Origin: Tagaea sp.
Lineage (GTDB): Bacteria; Pseudomonadota; Alphaproteobacteria; CACIAM-22H2
Length of the DNA: 64,000 nt
NCBI GenBank assembly: GCA_965228135.1
Contig: OZ245798.1
Coordinates: 1,803,037 to 1,867,036 of the forward strand
Direction: 5' to 3'
Within the stretch, counting starts at the first letter, position 1. Each line of letters opens with the position of its first letter. The notes beneath the pieces are model-generated. The model was not told where the DNA came from, searched no databases, and saw only the letters and a program-made list of their open reading frames with translations. The position numbers and the translations under genes were made by a program. This document shows positions 13,449-23,254 of this stretch, one piece after another.

Positions 13449-13461
13449 CACTTCAAACCAA

Positions 13462-13531
13462 TGATGGGCGATGTAGGGCTCGAACCGACGACAAGCTGAT
13501 TAAGAGTCAGCGGGTAGGTCGAACTAATCCC
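13462..13531 (-). pseudogene. tRNA-Lys(CTT)-like fragment; the 3' half is intact and the 5' half is degenerate
   Basis: On the minus strand, an anticodon arm GCTGA-CTCTTAA-TCAGC (anticodon CTT), a T-arm GTCGG-TTCGAGC-CCTAC and an acceptor 3' strand ATCGCCC-A. The upstream GGGATTAG... cannot form a D-arm or pair with the acceptor. It sits exactly at the left GC-content break. Confidence 0.4.
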
Positions 13532-13958: not shown

Positions 13959-14204
13959 TCACTTACCTGAGGCAGGCTTGGCACGACGAAAGCGCTGGGC
14001 AGGTGTCAAAAGGCCGTGCGAGGTCGATCTGAGCGCGACAGCAAGCTTGTCGAGCATATCCAATGACGCTGCGTAACGCTCGGTCTCCAGAAGCGAAACA
14101 TAGCTGCGGTCAATACCCGCAGCCATCGCCAGGGCTTCCTGGGACATCGCCCGCTCCCGCCGGATACGGCGCAAATTGATTGCCAAAACCCGTCTCGACC
14201 GCAT
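13959..14204 (-). CDS. XRE-family (Cro/CI-type) HTH transcriptional regulator
   Basis: LRRIRRERAMSQEALAMAAGIDRSYVSLLETERYAASLDMLDKLAVAL. A 60-aa ORF (13780..13962) is coupled downstream by a GTGA overlap. Confidence 0.75.
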   Translation of the reverse strand: MRSRRVLAINLRRIRRERAMSQEALAMAAGIDRSYVSLLETERYAASLDMLDKLAVALRSTSHGLLTPAQRFRRAKPASGK

Positions 14205-14313
14205 TCCCGGAGGGGACCAAGTTGCGGCCGAACGATCCACAGAGTATATTCAACAAATTATACTCATAGCCTGTACCCATCAGCAGGCAGGAATCCGCCT
14301 CGCGGCAACCAAG

Positions 14314-15042: not shown

Positions 15043-15477
15043 ATGGATCGAAGCGACGCAGCCCGGGAGCTCATGGCGATTTTTCTTGAAACGAAGAGTG
15101 TCCCGACGCCCGATCAACTGATCGCGCGAATTGAGAAAGTTGGAGCTCTTCAAAATCGAGCTCATCCCCTACTTCGCCCCATTACTCGTCAAGAAGCTGT
15201 CGAACTTGCGCAAGGCTCAATGCCGCAAGGGCTGGCCTTACATCGTTTCCGGCGCGCAGAGACGATGTGCGTTTGGATATCTGCCCATCGACGACTATAT
15301 CCTGACGCCTCGACTGACTGGCTCGAAGAGCTTTTCACTATTTTCGAATGGTCGCGATCGGGCTGCGAGGAAGGCGGCGAACTCGGATGCGACTGGATTT
15401 TCGCCGTGGAACACTTTGAAGGTCGCCCGAAGCTTATTCGAGATCCGATCGAAATTTCTCGCTCGAATTTCTTTTGA
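15043..15477 (+). CDS. hypothetical protein (island cargo)
   Basis: 144-aa ORF in a low-GC stretch with no recognisable motif. Confidence 0.35.
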   Translation: MDRSDAARELMAIFLETKSVPTPDQLIARIEKVGALQNRAHPLLRPITRQEAVELAQGSMPQGLALHRFRRAETMCVWISAHRRLYPDASTDWLEELFTIFEWSRSGCEEGGELGCDWIFAVEHFEGRPKLIRDPIEISRSNFF

Positions 15478-15783: not shown

Positions 15784-16152
15784 CGCGCTTTGAATGCCGG
15801 CAGATCGGCTTTGGCGCTCATTGCCAAGTTTGGCTCAGCTATCGCACTCTCGCACTGGGCCGGGCTGACCCGCTTCGCCGGCGACGGGCGTATCGAGATC
15901 GACAACAACGCGGTCGAACGAGCGATCCGGCCGCAGGCGCTGACCCACAAGAACGCGCTGTTCGCGGGCAGCGACGGCGGCGCGCAACATTGGGCGTGCC
16001 TCGCCTCGCTGATCGAGACCGCAAAGCTCAACGCGCTCGATCCGCTCGCCTAACTGACCGCCACTCTCGAAGCCCTCGCCGCCGGACATCCCATCAACCG
16101 CGCCGGCAAACTCCTCCCTTGGCGATGGGCACACACGCCGTCAACCGTGTGA
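15784..16152 (+). pseudogene. IS66-family transposase (TnpC) C-terminal remnant, 5'-truncated and with an in-frame nonsense codon
   Basis: GDGRIEIDNNAVERAIRPQALTHKNALFAGSDGGAQHWACLASLIETAKLNALDPLA-TAA-LTATLEALAAGHPINRAGKLLPWRW is the diagnostic IS66 C-terminus. The TAA at 16051-16053 replaces a conserved Tyr codon. Confidence 0.8.
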
Positions 16153-16262: not shown

Positions 16263-17222
16263 CTAAGGAGTCTCGTGATTTCTCAAGAGCGTGCTTAGCG
16301 ATTTGAAGTCCATCCCATACCGCCCCAAATCCAGGATGAATTCGATCAAGTTCTGAGGCGTGTAGCCAAGTGCTCGATGCTTCTCACTCGATATACTGCG
16401 AATCAGCACTATGAGCATTTCAAAATCGATCTTGTTGCGCCCCGCCTCGATCAGAATTACTCCCAGCTTAGGAACAGTGTATCCCAGCTCGCGAATTTCT
16501 TCAGTGAAGGCCCCGTTGACCTCAACTCCGTCAGCGATCATTTCGGACGTGAATGACTTCTCGGTAAGCTTCCGCAAATTCGCACGCCGCTTTCGAATCT
16601 CTGCGGCATAATTCTCGGTCCATCCACTGTACCGCACCGCATGATTCTGATCACGCATTGCCCGCTCACGATAGACCTTTGCACGGTACCCTGGCGATTG
16701 GGCTAGACCTTGCGGAGCGTCAGGGAGAAGCGAGTTACTCGCTGTGAGATCCGGCGCAGCATCCCCGGCCACCACCTTATCTCCGCCGGACCGCAATTTT
16801 GAATCGGTATCAGATCTTGCGATCATCTCTGGCGCCGCTTGGCACGAGGCAATGCCTGCGCCTGAGGCAATAGCATCGGGTTTGATTACTGCAGGATCCG
16901 GCGTAGCTTCACCGACAACCACCCGATCTTCGCTGGGCGGGAGGTTCGCAGTGGCCCCAGGTTTTGCAGTCGCCTCTCGAGAGGTTTGGTTCAGGTCGAT
17001 GTCCACCTCCGTAGACTGGGCACGAGATTTGATCGCGATGGTCAACGCCTTATGCGTTTCGGCGCGGCGTCGGGCGTCCTCGGCATCTCGCTGCGCCTGC
17101 ATCCCCTTTCGCCCGAAATGCGACGACGTATTGGGCGGCGACGCGGCAACTATGTGAGTTGCTCCAGTATCGGCGGGTGTTGCCGTTACAGACGATTGAT
17201 CCAATTTGGTTTTCTCGGACAT
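16263..17222 (-). CDS. hypothetical protein upstream of, and divergent from, the relaxase gene (possible mobilisation accessory protein)
   Basis: 319 aa with an A/P/S/T-rich low-complexity N-terminal half and a structured C-terminal third; no identifiable domain. Confidence 0.4.
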   Translation of the reverse strand: MSEKTKLDQSSVTATPADTGATHIVAASPPNTSSHFGRKGMQAQRDAEDARRRAETHKALTIAIKSRAQSTEVDIDLNQTSREATAKPGATANLPPSEDRVVVGEATPDPAVIKPDAIASGAGIASCQAAPEMIARSDTDSKLRSGGDKVVAGDAAPDLTASNSLLPDAPQGLAQSPGYRAKVYRERAMRDQNHAVRYSGWTENYAAEIRKRRANLRKLTEKSFTSEMIADGVEVNGAFTEEIRELGYTVPKLGVILIEAGRNKIDFEMLIVLIRSISSEKHRALGYTPQNLIEFILDLGRYGMDFKSLSTLLRNHETP

Positions 17223-17288
17223 GAAGCATGCTCCTCAGTTTGCGTGCGCGCTTTCGAGTGCGCCCTAACAAACCGATTATCCACGACC

Positions 17289-17424
17289 GCTCTTAAAAAC
17301 CGCTGCGCGGCGACGTGCCTCCGCCCCTAGATGCCCAGCCATTTTCGACACAGTCAGCAAGGCTTCGTCGAAAACGACGCTCTGCCAAGAATCCGTCTGT
17401 TCGGGCGTAGGCGTTTTTAAGACG
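17289..17424. repeat. inverted-repeat pair CTCTTAAAAACCGC ... GCGTTTTTAAGAC (site A), arms about 105 bp apart
   Basis: Left arm 17289-17304 and right arm 17410-17424. The same motif recurs upstream of the recombinase gene at 21296-21346. Confidence 0.6.
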
Positions 17425-17450
17425 ACTGCCCCTACACTTGCCCTTGTCCG

Positions 17451-17481
17451 CACCGGGCGCTCCCGATGGGAGCGCCCGGTG
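17451..17481. repeat. perfect 14-bp inverted repeat with a 3-nt spacer
   Basis: CACCGGGCGCTCCC-gat-GGGAGCGCCCGGTG in the relaxase upstream region. Confidence 0.8.
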
Positions 17482-17521
17482 CCAAGAGATTACGAGCGGC
17501 CGCAACAGCGGCCGCCCTATT

Positions 17522-17555
17522 CCCTAGTCGGGGACGGCCACGTCCCCGACTAGGG
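17522..17555. repeat. perfect 15-bp inverted repeat with a 4-nt spacer (candidate oriT hairpin or terminator)
   Basis: CCCTAGTCGGGGACG-gcca-CGTCCCCGACTAGGG, about 50 bp before the annotated relaxase start codon. Confidence 0.8.
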
Positions 17556-17612
17556 CGCAATTACGCATTCGCTGCTTCAGGGCAACACGAATGCAGGCTG
17601 TTGGAGGTCTAA

Positions 17613-20600
17613 ATGGCGCGCGACGAACTCGAAGACGACCTTCTACGAACTCGCGCTGGACGCCTCGACGAGTCCGCCGAGCTTTCAAATATAAGGCGAC
17701 TATTAAGCACGCCGCGCAGCCGAAGCGTCTATCTGCCTTCCTTCCGGCATCAACCGCGGCAAACTCGCCCATTCCGGGAGCTCGAGCACCGGTTTCCCAC
17801 AGCGTACCGCGTCGCCGCCACCAACGGCGCCGTCGTATCGACGTTTCATTTCCAGCAAACGTTCCTGTCGAGACGCCCGCTGCCGTCGTTACCGCGATCA
17901 GTGCAGACGGGTAAGCGGACAATAATTTGGCCGACTCGCGGCCAAGCAAAGTTCGTGAGATCTTCTGTCGCCGGTGCGCGGTATCACCGCGATCAACGCG
18001 TCTGGACAGTCCCAAGTGACCATCGATTTCTGAGAACGGCCCTAGGCAAGGCTCTCTCCTCGCCGCTCGCGAGGGCTACAGCAACTTTAAGACGCACGAG
18101 AACCAGCCGCGATGGGATAAAGCGCCAAGCAATCTGGTTTGCGCACTATCTCACAAGAACCGGCCCCCTCGCCGATCGTGCCGACGAACTCGTTCACGAT
18201 AGGGCGGGCCCGATCGTCGAAGGCACAATCGGCAAATCCGCTGCCGAGCTATCGAGCTTTTGGAGTGCTGCAGACGCGGCGGAACCTCGGGTCGATGGCA
18301 GGATTCAAGAGCGTCTCATTATTGAGATTCCTCACTGGCTGCCGCCCGAGGAGATGCGAAAAGCCCTTCAGCGGTTCGGCGCCGAACTGACCGCGCGTGG
18401 CGTGCCCTGGGTCGGTGCTGTGCACAGGCCCGACCCCCATGGGGATCCACGTAATTATCACGTTCATATCGTTCTCGGAACACGGGGGCTAATCGGATGG
18501 GAGATGCGCGCCGTTGACAACGATCCAGGCACCCTTCGCCGCGAACCGATCTTCGCCGATAAGAAAGATCGCGCAATGCAAGGGGAGAAGTGGATCTCAC
18601 ACTTGCGCAAGATCTACGCTGAAATCGTCAATCAAATCTCGATCGAATGGTCGCAGCGCGAAGGAACATTGGTGCCGCGCATTTTCCACGCCGGCAGCAA
18701 TGCCGAACTCGGCATCGAGGCTATACCATCCCGGCATCGAGGCCCTCGGCAAAGCGCGATCGATCGACGTATCGTCGCGCGCGGCGATGAACCTCGCCAC
18801 GTTCCAATTTACGAAGTCCAAGATGAACCCCGCATGGCGCAGATTCTGCGTGGCTTCAATGCCGATGAGGCGGCTTTTCTCGCGCTCTGCGACCGCATAG
18901 AACGCCTCGTCGTCGACGCAGATGCGACTGAATCCATTAGAAGCAGCCGCGCATCGCTGATCACAGCCGCCGACACAACTGCAGCGGCGATTGAGCTGTG
19001 CGAAGAGAAAATCGAAGCGGTCTTGGTCGAATTTCAGGTGGATCGTGACGATGAAAGCCCGATCACCGATCATGATCGAATGTCATCCGACAGCATCCGC
19101 GAACTCGTCGATGCGGTCCGTGTAACCGTTTCTCGTTCCCACGATATCGAAAAGGAACTGATCGCGGTGCTCGCGCATAGCGAGACCATTCGTGACATTT
19201 CGCCGATCACCGAAAGCGCGGCCGCAGAGACAAAATCAGCGAAAGAATTGGAGCAAGCGGAAGCGACGATTGATCACCTGCCTGCCATAAATAAGTCGGT
19301 CATTCATCCGATCGAAGAACAGCACCTTTATGCCAATCCTTCTTCTGGTGAGCGTCCTGAAACTGAACGGTCTGAGCCATCGCACCACGTGCTGGTTACG
19401 TCGCCGCCCGAGCAGCCACAAAGTATCATCGCCGTTAAAGATACTCTTACACGGAGGCTCCAAGACCATCATAGAGCTATTATGCTCATCAAAGAACGAG
19501 GCTGGCGTCACGGGGCTACGGCGACCCGGCACGCCGAAGCTCGAGAAGCTCAGTTCGAGGCATTCAAAAGACGCCTCGCCGCGGAGGAAGCGGCCGAACG
19601 CTGTGAACGTCTCGTCAAATCAATCTCTGAAAGTTCATTCGAGAGTATCGGGCCAAATGACGCGTCACCACACGGCGCGAGCCACCACAACAATCAGTGC
19701 GACTTTGAACAACTCTTAAAAGAATTGGAATTAGCTGATCATCGTATATCGGAAACGCAGCAGGCGCTCGAACATTGGGAAGATATCGAGCGGAAGCTAC
19801 AGGACGTCCCCTTCATCGACGAACGTTTGCATGACCCAAAAAACTTGGTACCGCGGATACTCGAAGAATCTGACCCAGACTGGGTCATCGCAGAAATTCA
19901 AAGACAATTGAAAAAGTGCCGCTGGGTTCCGCGACACCGTGGTCAAAGAATTGTGAAGCCGATGCTTCGCGATGCCGACATCACTCTCGGCGACGTGGTT
20001 GAAGCACGAGTCCGTTACTCGCAAGAGAATGGTTGGACGATTGAATTTCCGCGCTTCTCCAGCGAGAGCGCGCGCCGTGACGCTACGGATCAACAGTGCC
20101 TTTGGATGGCGTTGATTACTCAGATGTTCATGACCACCACGCAAAGTGTCGGTAGCAAAGAGATTGCCGGTATTCTCAAGTGTTATGGCTTCACAAAAAT
20201 CGAGCCCGATAAGAACGGCATCATTGAGATTCGTAGATCTGACGGCTTGCTGCGCGTCGCACGTGATGGTCGCTTTGCAAGCGTCTACGGGTCCAATGTG
20301 GACCTGCATGCGGCGTTCGACGCGTTTGCCCACGCACGCCATGACAGTAGCAGCGACATTGCATTACAGAAAATCCTTGAAAGCAAGAAAGAGCCTCCGC
20401 TCGTTTTTTATCCTAACGATGCCGATCGCAAAGTCGATCTGATTAAGATCGCTAACGATATTCTTCACTTACATGAACTCCAGCCAATCGATCGTCAGCG
20501 CGTTCAGCACGTCGGTCATGCGTTGAAGAAGCACGAGAAGGCGCTAGAGACCTTTCATCCGACATTGAAGCCGGCCGAGAAGCAAGTCGCAGTAGATGAC

Positions 20601-21074
20601 TCGAGTTCGCGGCCTCCATTAATAGAGGCCAAGAATCAGACCGAAGCGGATTTGGAACACGCCCGAGAGCCAAGGCGCCATCTCGCGCGTCAAGAAGATG
20701 ACAGCGGGATATTTGGCCGCCTGACGCGTGGCATCGTGCAATGGTGGCGCGATACGACTGAAGTCCAGGGAGGCGAATCTCGGTCCACAATGAAGCCGTC
20801 AAAGCGCTCGCCTATGAGTTTTGATGCGCGGGCTTTCGAGCATCATGTATCGCGAAATGCGTCTTCGACGAACGCGGCATCCAGCGCGACGCGGATCAAA
20901 CAGGTAGATACGACGCCCGTCACCCAAGCCACGGGGCCAACAATCGCAGCGCGCCCGGCGACGCCTCCGCGGTCGCCAAACATTGGAAACGCCGCAGGCA
21001 GCGGCGGCAGCAGCGTTCACGACGTTATCCAGTCGGTGCGGTCGCGCGGTCGCGACCGTGATCGCGAACGATAA
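17613..21074 (+). CDS. MobA/MobL-family (TraA-like, MOBQ-type) conjugative relaxase with an ~800-aa C-terminal extension of unknown function
   Basis: The 3-His motif VHRPDPHGDPRNYHVHIVL, FW...IIEIPHWLPPEE, a HYLTRTG block and a candidate catalytic Tyr in SSVAGARYHRD are collinear with Ti-plasmid TraA. The first ~96 codons of the track ORF look non-coding; a GTG at 17901 (SVQTGKRTIIW) is the probable start. No Walker A or helicase motif follows. Confidence 0.8.
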   Translation: MARDELEDDLLRTRAGRLDESAELSNIRRLLSTPRSRSVYLPSFRHQPRQTRPFRELEHRFPTAYRVAATNGAVVSTFHFQQTFLSRRPLPSLPRSVQTGKRTIIWPTRGQAKFVRSSVAGARYHRDQRVWTVPSDHRFLRTALGKALSSPLARATATLRRTRTSRDGIKRQAIWFAHYLTRTGPLADRADELVHDRAGPIVEGTIGKSAAELSSFWSAADAAEPRVDGRIQERLIIEIPHWLPPEEMRKALQRFGAELTARGVPWVGAVHRPDPHGDPRNYHVHIVLGTRGLIGWEMRAVDNDPGTLRREPIFADKKDRAMQGEKWISHLRKIYAEIVNQISIEWSQREGTLVPRIFHAGSNAELGIEAIPSRHRGPRQSAIDRRIVARGDEPRHVPIYEVQDEPRMAQILRGFNADEAAFLALCDRIERLVVDADATESIRSSRASLITAADTTAAAIELCEEKIEAVLVEFQVDRDDESPITDHDRMSSDSIRELVDAVRVTVSRSHDIEKELIAVLAHSETIRDISPITESAAAETKSAKELEQAEATIDHLPAINKSVIHPIEEQHLYANPSSGERPETERSEPSHHVLVTSPPEQPQSIIAVKDTLTRRLQDHHRAIMLIKERGWRHGATATRHAEAREAQFEAFKRRLAAEEAAERCERLVKSISESSFESIGPNDASPHGASHHNNQCDFEQLLKELELADHRISETQQALEHWEDIERKLQDVPFIDERLHDPKNLVPRILEESDPDWVIAEIQRQLKKCRWVPRHRGQRIVKPMLRDADITLGDVVEARVRYSQENGWTIEFPRFSSESARRDATDQQCLWMALITQMFMTTTQSVGSKEIAGILKCYGFTKIEPDKNGIIEIRRSDGLLRVARDGRFASVYGSNVDLHAAFDAFAHARHDSSSDIALQKILESKKEPPLVFYPNDADRKVDLIKIANDILHLHELQPIDRQRVQHVGHALKKHEKALETFHPTLKPAEKQVAVDDSSSRPPLIEAKNQTEADLEHAREPRRHLARQEDDSGIFGRLTRGIVQWWRDTTEVQGGESRSTMKPSKRSPMSFDARAFEHHVSRNASSTNAASSATRIKQVDTTPVTQATGPTIAARPATPPRSPNIGNAAGSGGSSVHDVIQSVRSRGRDRDRER

Positions 21075-21295
21075 AGAGCCCCTCACTGACCATGGCCGAC
21101 CTAGCAAGCTACGGGGCGAAGCAATTCGCTGGGGAGATCTACCAAGCAGCTCGGTCAATGCGCGATGAGAGCCAAGCTTTGGATAGCCTCGCGCCCGACG
21201 CGGAGCACGGAGGCAAGACAGCCGCCACGACACCGCCCAAGACGGCTCGACGGATATCCATCTAAGTTATTGTAAATAATATACTATTTAGATTT

Positions 21296-21346
21296 CTCTT
21301 AAAACCGCTCGAAAGAGCCAAGCCGCGACGCGGCCGTTTTTAAGAC
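21296..21346. repeat. inverted repeat CTCTTAAAACCGCT-(22 bp)-GGCCGTTTTTAAGAC (site B) after an AT-rich stretch; candidate recombinase/att or oriT-like site
   Basis: Same arms as site A at 17289/17410. Preceded by ctaagttattgtaaataatatactatttagattt, about 240 bp upstream of the recombinase start. Confidence 0.55.
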
Positions 21347-21581
21347 CCCAGCTTGACAATGTCCGCATGGATAGGACGAGCAAATCCAGCGGCCGGGGCG
21401 GCATCTACGCCCCTGAGCCGGCGCCCAGCGAGGGCGCCGGCGGCCGATCAGATTCGTCCTCGACCCTCCATGCCCAAGCGAACGAACTTCTACGTACCCT
21501 TGCACGTCTGCTTGTGCACGACAGCGAATTGCAGCAGCCTCAAGCGCCGATGGATAAGACCTCAGATCAGCCGAAGGACGA

Positions 21582-23243
21582 ATGCAAATGATCAGGGCTG
21601 CGATCTACGCACGCTATTCCAGCGACTTGCAGCGCGAATCCTCGATCGACGATCAGGTCAGAATTTGCCGGGAGCGGATCGAACGCGACGGCGGCGCCGT
21701 TACGGAAACCTACGCCGACGCAGCGATCAGTGGATCGCGTGCAGCAAACCGCCCTTCACTTCAACGACTGGTAAGCGACGCTCGCCTTCGTCGGTTCACT
21801 CACGTCTATATGGAGGCGCTGGACCGACTGAGTCGCGACCAGGAAGACGTTGCCGGACTGTTCAAGCGGTTACGTCATGCGGACGTGACCGTCATCACGT
21901 TGAGCGAGGGCGAAATCAGCGAACTGCACGTCGGGCTAAAGGGCACGATGAACGCCCTCTACCTAAAAGACCTTGCTGACAAGGTACGACGCGGCCAGCG
22001 CGGCCGTGTGGCCCAACAACGAGCGGCAGGAGGACTCGGATACGGATACGATGTCGTTCGGAACATCGACAGCGATGGCGAGATCGATCGTGGCGTCCGC
22101 GCGGTCAACGAGACCGAGGCAGGCGTGATCCGGCGTATTTTTGGCGAGTATGTGGCTGGTAGATCACCCCGCACCATCGCACGAAACTTGAATGCAGATG
22201 GCGTTCCTGCGCCGCGCGGGGGCGCCTGGAATGCGTCAACAATAAATGGGCATCCCGTGCGCCTGCACGGTATCCTGACAAATCCCTTATTCAATGGCGT
22301 GATGATCTACAACCGTGTCGGTTATCGCAGGGATCCAGAAACGGGAAAGCGTCAACTCCGCTCGGTACCATCGGACCAATGGGTCCATGTTGAGATGCCG
22401 CATTTACGTATCGTCGACCCTGATACTTGGAACAAAGCACAATCGATTCGAGGCCAACTCGGTCAGACAAAGCGCCTAAACCATACTCATAGGCCCAAGC
22501 ACCTGCTGTCGGGGCTCATACGTTGCGGCATTTGTGGCGGAGCATACACGGTGGTCGCCTCAGGCCGACTTGGCTGTGTTGCACGCCGCGAAAAAGGGAC
22601 ATGCACCAACGCGCGGTCGGTAAAAACCGAGGAACTAACCACACGCGTGCTATCGGGAATCAAACAGCGCCTTCTGTCTCCTGCGATGTTCGCCGAATTT
22701 ATGGAAGAATTTCAGGCGACGCAGTCCGCCCGCGATAAGGCCGAGATCGACAACATGGCCGCACTCCGTCGAGAAGAGCGGGAACTCAATCAGCGAATCG
22801 AACGTTACGTGACCGCTATTGGGGATGGAACAGACAGCCCTGCAGTTCGGAAAGCCCTAATCGAGGCAGAGAATCGGATCGCCGCGATTCGCGCCGAAAT
22901 GTGCAAATCCAAACCGCCGTCGGCCCCCGAACTGCATCCGGCGTTACCTGAGCTATACCGTCGGCGCGTCGAGCAGCTTGAACACGCGTTCGCCAATGAC
23001 CCGACAAACAGAGCGCGAGCTGCCCAGATCATCCGGTCCCTCGTGGAGCAGATTCGGGTATTTCCCCAGGACGCGCGCGGTGCTGTCGAAATTGAGGTCG
23101 CAGGCGCCATCGCCCAGATACTGGCGTTGGCACAACAAAAAGACGTCGAAGATCAAATGGATGGAATGATGGTCTCGATGGTGCCCGGGGCCGGAATCGA
23201 ACCAGCGACACTGCGATTTTCAATCGCATGCTCTACCAACTGA
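21582..23243 (+). CDS. large serine recombinase (resolvase/invertase N-terminal domain, recombinase domain, zinc ribbon, coiled-coil)
   Basis: AAIYARYSSDLQ (catalytic Ser), LDRLSRD, and CGICGGAY...C..C zinc ribbon. The last ~22 codons read through the tRNA-Phe gene on the opposite strand. Confidence 0.9.
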   Translation: MQMIRAAIYARYSSDLQRESSIDDQVRICRERIERDGGAVTETYADAAISGSRAANRPSLQRLVSDARLRRFTHVYMEALDRLSRDQEDVAGLFKRLRHADVTVITLSEGEISELHVGLKGTMNALYLKDLADKVRRGQRGRVAQQRAAGGLGYGYDVVRNIDSDGEIDRGVRAVNETEAGVIRRIFGEYVAGRSPRTIARNLNADGVPAPRGGAWNASTINGHPVRLHGILTNPLFNGVMIYNRVGYRRDPETGKRQLRSVPSDQWVHVEMPHLRIVDPDTWNKAQSIRGQLGQTKRLNHTHRPKHLLSGLIRCGICGGAYTVVASGRLGCVARREKGTCTNARSVKTEELTTRVLSGIKQRLLSPAMFAEFMEEFQATQSARDKAEIDNMAALRREERELNQRIERYVTAIGDGTDSPAVRKALIEAENRIAAIRAEMCKSKPPSAPELHPALPELYRRRVEQLEHAFANDPTNRARAAQIIRSLVEQIRVFPQDARGAVEIEVAGAIAQILALAQQKDVEDQMDGMMVSMVPGAGIEPATLRFSIACSTN

Positions 23244-23254
23244 GCTACCCGGGC
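23179..23254 (-). tRNA. tRNA-Phe (anticodon GAA)
   Basis: Minus strand reads GCCCGGGTAGCTCAGTTGGTAGAGCATGCGATTGAAAATCGCAGTGTCGCTGGTTCGATTCCGGCCCCGGGCACCA. This is a canonical 76-nt cloverleaf, near-identical to E. coli tRNA-Phe, with CCA encoded. Confidence 0.95.

Follow-up and report, generated by a model that had tools for sequence, protein, structure and literature searches.

A TTAAG box repeated on both sides of a relaxase gene, a probable shared regulatory site in an integrative mobilizable element of Tagaea sp.

Introduction

In the 64,000 nucleotides of a Tagaea sp. contig analysed here, hereafter called the window, a relaxase gene is flanked by two pairs of short arms in inverted orientation, one in front of the gene (site A) and the other behind it (site B). 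The question raised by this locus is what such arms are for, since an earlier note on this DNA read them as fitting oriT/nic-site repeats or sites of the adjacent serine recombinase, and also mentioned a dispersed REP-type repeat. It is argued below that the arms probably constitute a shared regulatory box, which lies where three or four outward-facing promoters would have their -35 element and by which the mobilization and the excision/integration genes would be co-regulated, and that the likely nic site stands apart from them.

An integrative mobilizable element and its relatives

Both sites lie within a stretch of about 9.7 kb (about 13.46-23.18 kb of the window) of low G+C content, i.e., 55-60% against ~65%, which carries the relaxase gene, the recombinase gene and a gene divergent from the former; no gene for type IV secretion or a coupling protein was found within it. 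This stretch is an integrative mobilizable element (IME) of ~9.7 kb. Its relaxase family is rare, with about ten homologues among 5.8 billion proteins. Genomic contexts were recovered for loci L001 through L010, and the comparison of the boxes covers nine related loci, with relaxase identities from 83 down to 26%. Scanning genome contigs with the single relaxase protein returned nothing, and an alignment-based rescan of genome contigs returned three loci, two of them useful. Identity to the relaxase of the window amounts to 83, 79, 73, 57, and 56% in the close set and 26% in L007 and L008, while the relaxases of L009 and L010 reach 35-36% in the best segment. All relatives with sequence on the side of the divergent gene have a common gene order, namely the divergent gene, the intergenic region, the relaxase gene, a small ORF and the recombinase gene.

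The relaxase (17613..21074, plus strand; 1153 aa) comprises a MobA/MobL domain (aa 208-386) and a conserved N-terminal extension of 170 aa; it gives sub-threshold matches to TraA_Ti and MobQ and is, on sequence grounds, a distant MOBQ relaxase, the N-terminal 406 aa of which have no relative in the PDB. Divergent from it, a gene on the minus strand (16263..17222), kept wherever a relative has sequence there, encodes a 319-aa protein of no known family. This protein had no match in Pfam or NCBIfam, its remote matches were either members of its own, tiny family or spurious TPR-repeat proteins, and the AlphaFold models were helical, of low confidence (pLDDT 52-56) and too poor for a fold search. 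Its N-terminal half is disordered, and it contains a long basic helix (about aa 179-246) as well as two helical repeats of ~38 aa (LGYTxPxLxExI...DFxxLxxLxR), reduced to a single repeat in L007; it may act as a relaxosome accessory protein or as a regulator. Downstream of the relaxase gene, an ORF of 74 aa (21367..21591, plus strand), whose length and frame are kept in L001, L002, L003, and L006, overlaps the start of the gene for a large serine recombinase (LSR; 21582..23243, plus strand) with Resolvase, Recombinase and Zn_ribbon_recom domains. As cargo, the element further carries (i) an XRE-family HTH gene (13959-14240, minus strand), (ii) an ORF (15043-15477) homologous to an ORF of L001, the latter alone having a NERD-domain protein nearby, and (iii) a C-terminal fragment of an IS66-family transposase (15790-16053), identified by eye from the translation.

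A tRNA-Phe gene (23179-23254, minus strand) stands at the right end of the low-GC stretch. The LSR ORF runs ~22 codons into this tRNA gene on the opposite strand, with no stop codon before it (window 23100-23254), and the junction, i.e., ...GGTCTCGA followed by TGGTGCCCGG, shows no difference among the five LSR elements (the window, L001, L002, L003, and L006), which places the element precisely at the CCA end of tRNA-Phe; on excision, the C-terminus of the recombinase would change. The left end is a conserved, decayed tRNA-Lys(CUU)-like sequence (13459..13530, minus strand), also present at 3536-3610 of L006 and 32-100 of L004, in which the T-arm, the anticodon stem-loop and, in L006, the CCA end are intact and for which ARAGORN made no call; in L006, its 3' end mimics a tRNA end (TGGTGGGCG). 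This left end may be the tRNA-mimicking half of attP or the fossil of an earlier insertion into tRNA-Lys by a form of the element with a tyrosine integrase.

Four arms, one motif

The arms were found where the earlier note had placed them, reading CTCTTAAAAACCGC (17290-17303) and GCGTTTTTAAGAC (17411-17423) at site A, and CTCTTAAAACCGC (21296-21308) and CCGTTTTTAAGAC (21334-21346) at site B. Their description as near-perfect reverse complements holds for a core of 10 nt (TCTTAAAAAC / GTTTTTAAGA), outside which complementarity weakens. A repeat search returned the arms of site A as 18 nt with 83% complementarity and 96 nt between them; in this search, the A-left arm also matches the B-right arm over 31 nt at 77%. 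All four arms carry the same motif and the relaxase gene is indeed bracketed by copies of it, as had been claimed. Site B as a whole is an imperfect palindrome of 49 bp.

The core 8-mer TCTTAAAA occurs five times in the 64 kb against 0.34 expected, a count reached by none of 100 shuffles; four of these copies form the two inverted pairs (17291-17422 and 21297-21345) and the fifth lies at 19714, within the relaxase ORF. Across the 64-kb window, neither a search with the 12-mer CGTTTTTAAGAC allowing up to two mismatches nor a search for the box-plus-hexamer pattern described below revealed any further convincing copy, hence the motif is not dispersed within the window. As such, the motif is real, non-random and local, its paired copies being confined to two intergenic regions. 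A dispersed REP-like element, as the earlier note had contemplated, or else a chance occurrence or decaying duplication devoid of function, would be scarcely credible as an explanation: within the 64-kb window no copy lies outside the element, and among the relatives the motif is kept at fixed positions with respect to the genes even where the relaxases are 26-32% identical overall (35-36% in the best segment) and the flanks are unalignable.

A box at fixed distance from hexamers and start codons

Read outward from its pair, every arm is a 14-bp box, namely CnGnCGnTYTTAAG. In the 24 aligned arms of nine related loci, TTAAG is invariant (24/24), and C at position -9, G at -7, C at -5, G at -4, and T at -2 are each kept in 17-21 of them. 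Box A-left (17292..17305, minus strand), which reads CGCAGCGGTTTTTAAG on that strand and fits the consensus, faces the 319-aa gene and has its TTAAG conserved in eight of eight relatives; 10 nt downstream of it, the -10-like hexamer GATAAT (17276..17281, minus strand) would belong to the promoter of this gene and is GATAAT in five close relatives and GACGAT, GACAAT, or GAAAAT in L007, L009, and L010. Box A-right (GTAGGCGTTTTTAAG; 17408..17421, plus strand) faces the relaxase gene and is followed at 11 nt by TACACT (17433..17438, plus strand), the putative promoter of a transcript covering the oriT leader and the relaxase gene; the hexamer is likewise TACACT in five close relatives, CATGCT in L007, and CAAACT in L009 and L010. 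Box B-right (CGGCCGTTTTTAAG; 21331..21344, plus strand) faces the operon of the 74-aa ORF and the recombinase gene; 10 nt after it comes GACAAT (21355..21360, plus strand), 6 nt before the ATG at 21367 and without a Shine-Dalgarno sequence, the variants among loci being GACAAT, GACACT, or GATACT. Box B-left (GAGCGGTTTTAAG; 21298..21311, minus strand), followed after 11 nt by TAGTAT (21281-21286), is recognisable only in the three closest elements and has degenerated in L002, L005, and L006, where B-right is intact.

A hexamer with A in second and T in sixth position, 10 or 11 nt after TTAAG, was found for 26 of 26 arms, which come from homologous relatives sharing ancestry and so do not amount to 26 independent observations; among the other TTAAG occurrences of these sequences, the rate is 12 of 67. 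Even L007, L009, and L010 preserve this geometry, although their flanks do not align to the window. At B-right, the ATG of the downstream ORF stands 6-7 nt after the hexamer in nine of nine loci, with no Shine-Dalgarno or purine-rich ribosome-binding site in between, unlike the relaxase gene and the 319-aa gene, which possess GGAGG or GAGGAG; such would be the layout of a promoter yielding a leaderless mRNA. As in a transcription-factor box of mobile-element promoters, distance and orientation are fixed with respect to both hexamers and start codons. Relative to the transcription start sites that we infer, the box spans about -36 to -23, i.e., the place of a -35 element, a position occupied by the GC-rich half of the box, the -10-like hexamer being the only promoter element present. 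In line with this, a sigma-70 scan of both intergenic regions found no canonical -35/-10 promoter (TTGACA/TATAAT-like elements 16-18 nt apart), which would fit dependence on a factor, the promoters themselves being putative.

The orientation of the box always follows the gene it faces. In the alignment of relatives, the 116-nt spacer between the arms of site A is poorly conserved, the outer span from CTTAA to TTAAG varies, from 129-131 bp in close relatives to 104 bp in L007 and 86 bp in L009, and the arms keep no helical phase with respect to each other. Taken together, orientation, unconserved spacer and varying span fit independent divergent promoters better than one structured site. The base following TTAAG changes in parallel in both arms of site A, being A/A in the window, L001 and L004, T/T in L002, T/G in L006, C/C in L007, and G/G in L009 and L010; such a pattern would be expected of arms read by one protein, and the co-variation suggests a reader co-evolving with the element.

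Several known sites were compared by eye with the arms through their consensus sequences, namely those of CtrA (TTAA-N7-TTAA), IHF, sigma-28, sigma-54, MerR-type spacing, the Irr ICE box and the DnaA box, and none fits all of them. The A-left hexamer is part of ATTATCCACG (17273-17282), which is invariant in five close relatives and is not retained in L007, L009, and L010. It agrees at eight of nine positions with TTATCCACA, the DnaA-box consensus; this likeness is limited to the A-left arm of close relatives and is probably coincidental. Directly 5' of site B lies an AT-rich block (AAGTTATTGTAAATAATATACTATTTAGA; 21262-21296), within which ATTGTAAATAA is nearly invariant in six relatives, and L007 has a block similar to it (TATTTAGAA); a site for a bending protein or an UP-like element are possibilities for this block.

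A probable oriT apart from the arms

Between box A-right and the start of the relaxase gene, a block invariant in five relatives (17552..17594, minus strand) has the features of an oriT core, i.e., an inverted repeat formed by GCATTCG (17588-17594) and CGAATGC (17565-17571) with 16 nt between them, then GTAATTGCG/CCCT. The predicted nic substrate reads CAGCGAATGCGTAATTGCGCCCTAGTC, with cleavage predicted between G and CCCT. In the RSF1010 substrate used in experiments, GTTTCTC-GAA-GAGAAAC-CGGTAAGTGCG/CCCTCCC, the slash denotes nic (PMC4814116). Over the 13 nt around the predicted nick, 12 positions match RSF1010 GTAAGTGCG/CCCT, and the inverted repeat lies on the same side of the nick as in RSF1010, at a similar distance. 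In L007, L009, and L010, the sequence GCGCAAT(T/A)ACGCAT stands beside an equivalent inverted repeat. An RSF1010-like nic block fits a distant MOBQ relaxase and puts the probable nick between 17556 and 17555 on the minus strand, ~130 bp from the nearest box, 17552-17594 being the probable location of the nic site of oriT. With this likely site located, a concrete substrate for testing is at hand.

The nic 13-mer (17552-17564, minus strand) is unique in the 64-kb window and is the only match there to an RSF1010-type nic sequence; the TTAAG arms, including those of site B, have none. The combination of such a sequence with an inverted repeat is thus absent from the arms and present in the separate block at 17552-17594, and the proposal that the arms are oriT/nic-site repeats is not upheld. 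A BLAST search of the site A region against plasmids gave no match, hence no annotated oriT for comparison, and a literature search with the nic string returned unrelated primers only. A promoter active on single-stranded DNA (Frpo-like) was rejected, because, for the 319-aa gene, the strand predicted to be transferred is coding and not template.

The proximity of the boxes of site A to this block introduces the main rival to a promoter box, namely that the boxes bind a relaxosome accessory protein, e.g., the 319-aa protein, and act as auxiliary parts of oriT that assist in loading or positioning the relaxase, whether or not transcription is affected as well. Site A shares its intergenic region with the predicted nic site, ~130 bp apart, both of its arms co-vary, and the divergent 319-aa gene presumably occupies the position held by accessory genes elsewhere, i.e., mobC in RSF1010 and traC in Ti plasmids, which supports this role. 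On the other side, a distance of 3.7 kb separates site B from the nic site, site B directly precedes the excision/integration operon and lacks nic-like sequence, a fixed distance to -10-like hexamers and start codons would be needless for such a role, and the spacing of the arms at site A varies among relatives (130, 104, and 86 bp). A relaxosome-accessory function is therefore an unlikely, though not negligible, explanation of the arms, and the boxes of site A may double as such sites.

Between box A-right and the nic block stand three GC-rich hairpins (17450-17482, 17496-17515, and 17522-17555), two of which have perfect arms of 15 bp. The DNA fold of this region reaches -57.4 kcal/mol (z = -11), and a comparison of five relatives reveals compensatory changes at 10 pairs. 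Candidate roles for these hairpins are relaxosome binding, hairpins of the transferred strand, or a structure in the leader of the relaxase mRNA. A search of Rfam found nothing in the island besides tRNA-Phe, so that neither arms nor hairpins are accounted for by a known RNA family.

Pairing between the arms

The arms could also function by pairing as such, i.e., as a cruciform, a hairpin of the transferred strand or a bidirectional terminator, in which case the structure itself would be functional. The mutual complementarity of the arms of site A is predicted equally well by a hairpin or cruciform and, to this extent, counts against the promoter box. Moreover, each arm consists of a weak GC stem (4-7 bp) followed by a T-run, and both A-right and B-right were picked up by a terminator scan; the single-stranded DNA of site B closes into a hairpin at -11.2 kcal/mol with a modest z of -2.3; and three of the 11 arm pairs at site A have changed on both sides, 94.5% of cells being paired across five related sequences. 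Yet two copies of one protein-binding site would also keep complementarity, and the single-stranded fold of site A is no better than that of shuffled sequence (z = -1.27, 23 of 200 shuffles folding equally well), whereby a long-range hairpin at site A was rejected. The T-run is lost in L005 and L006 (CGAACTTAAG) with TTAAG retained, B-left degenerates in three relatives beside an intact B-right, and B-right follows the box without pairing to either arm of site A. Outward terminators between the divergent genes at site A would have nothing to terminate, and the reading as intrinsic terminators was rejected for this wrong orientation together with the weak stems and the unconserved T-run. A functional structure is accordingly regarded as improbable.

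Exchange of the integration module

The other proposal of the earlier note was that the pairs are sites of the adjacent large serine recombinase, whether att-like, res-like or as autoregulatory operators. The palindrome of site B lies ~240 bp 5' of the recombinase gene, and Tn3-type resolvases regulate divergent promoters via their res sites. The relatives speak otherwise. L004 and L005 have a tyrosine integrase in place of the 74-aa ORF and the LSR, and in L010 an excisionase-type HTH_17 ORF occupies the position of the small ORF and the LSR; the same boxes nonetheless stand in the same places in L004, L005, and L007-L010. The right arm of site B is conserved in all aligned sequences, and in L004, L005, and L010 both box B-right and its hexamer persist, with the distance to the downstream start codon unchanged. 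Both pairs are internal to the element rather than at its attL/attR ends, the junctions deduced at ~13459 (tRNA-Lys-like left end) and ~23178 (CCA end of tRNA-Phe) being without a box, and in L006, whose LSR module is 90% identical to that of the window, B-right reads GAACTTAAGT instead of GTTTTTAAGA. Judged on this sequence comparison, recombinase sites are already contradicted and would be a very improbable identity for the arms.

Homology between the window and L004 ends at 21358, inside the B-right hexamer (L004 5417-5435), and the 90% identical LSR module of L006, whose relaxase DNA is only 64-77% identical to that of the window, starts at 21340, at TTAAG (L006 9529). Both breakpoints fall inside the B-right promoter, which makes of this putative promoter the seam at which integration modules are exchanged and a part of the backbone rather than of any one recombinase; in other words, serine and tyrosine recombination modules have been swapped exactly there.

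In the two loci with a tyrosine integrase, the leaderless ATG opens a basic ORF of 34-35 aa (MVRIRRTRP...; L004 5444-5551, L005 3725-3829), whose stop codon overlaps the integrase start (ATGA). Translational coupling of this upstream ORF to int is conceivable.

Discussion

The motif, its conservation, its fixed geometry with respect to hexamers and start codons, and its independence from the type of recombinase are observed directly, and from them a shared promoter box appears the most suitable description of the arms. None of the promoters proposed has a sigma-70-like -35 hexamer, hence the box is most likely the binding site of one protein. At site A, two boxes would serve divergent promoters, with the 319-aa gene transcribed leftward and the oriT leader and relaxase gene rightward; at site B, box B-right would serve the promoter of a leaderless mRNA for the small ORF and recombinase operon, and B-left, which only the closest relatives have, would drive antisense transcription of the 3' end of the relaxase gene. 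A single DNA-binding protein, either activator or repressor, would recognise the box at each of three promoters, or of four in the closest relatives, and thereby switch the relaxase gene, its divergent partner and the excision/integration operon together. That B-left faces no gene is a point against a box shared by promoters.

Promoter activity, like the existence and identity of the binding protein, is something we infer from the arrangement described above. The candidates are (i) the 319-aa divergent protein, (ii) the N-terminal domain of the relaxase, and (iii) a regulator supplied by a helper element. Searches of the conserved proteins of the element against Pfam and NCBIfam and by structure recognised no DNA-binding domain, and a missing -35 element equally allows an activator provided by a helper conjugative element. 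It is conceivable, at a rather low probability, that the box is the target of a master activator encoded on an alphaproteobacterial helper conjugative element and that the three -35-less promoters of the island, among them the leaderless one, stay silent until this helper is active within the same cell. If so, the island would be the alphaproteobacterial counterpart of the hijacking of AcaCD and SetCD by SGI1 and the MGIs, the variants TTAAGA, TTAAGT, TTAAGC, and TTAAGG would mark adaptation to different helpers, and the motif could predict these helpers.

A box of the kind favoured here is ordinary for mobile elements and its arrangement is of a known kind. Its significance lies in that one box apparently ties together the expression of the relaxase gene, the divergent partner gene and the excision/integration operon, which defines a cis-regulatory logic for a rare, uncharacterized alphaproteobacterial family of small mobilizable islands. 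Were the box read by a helper activator, it would give a handle for finding the conjugative elements that mobilize these islands; otherwise, it represents a normal operator/promoter arrangement.

Among known systems, RSF1010/R1162 (IncQ, MOBQ) resembles the island by its relaxase of the MobA/MobL-MOBQ type, by a nic block placed after an inverted repeat, and by a relaxase gene and a second gene diverging from the oriT region, and the mob promoters of RSF1010 are autoregulated. It differs by having neither TTAAG boxes nor an integration module, and the arm motif is distinct from its nic and inverted-repeat sequences. With the res sites of Tn3 and gamma-delta, the arms have in common imperfect inverted repeats of variable spacing beside a serine-recombinase gene and between divergent promoters; the recombinase of the island, though, is a large serine integrase, and as the boxes persist with a tyrosine integrase, this likeness is superficial.

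The best-documented parallel is the AcaCD box. AcaCD boxes precede xis and the mobilization genes of SGI1 and MGIVmi1 in the layout of a class-2 activator, and in pVCR94 two of them, on opposite strands, lie between the divergent promoters of vcrx059 and of the relaxase gene traI (PMC4207636). AcaCD and SetCD boxes are found in promoters of the mobilizable islands as well as of the helper plasmids and ICEs (PMC4207636, PMC4344509). The box of the island is unrelated to these in sequence, its hosts are Alphaproteobacteria, and no helper element bearing the box turned up. Within each element the bases adjacent to TTAAG co-vary, a hint that each might have a reader of its own. What the systems share is the organisation, i.e., one short box repeated 5' of both the excision and the mobilization genes of a small integrated element, including a pair of boxes, one per strand, in the interval that separates the relaxase gene from its divergent neighbour.
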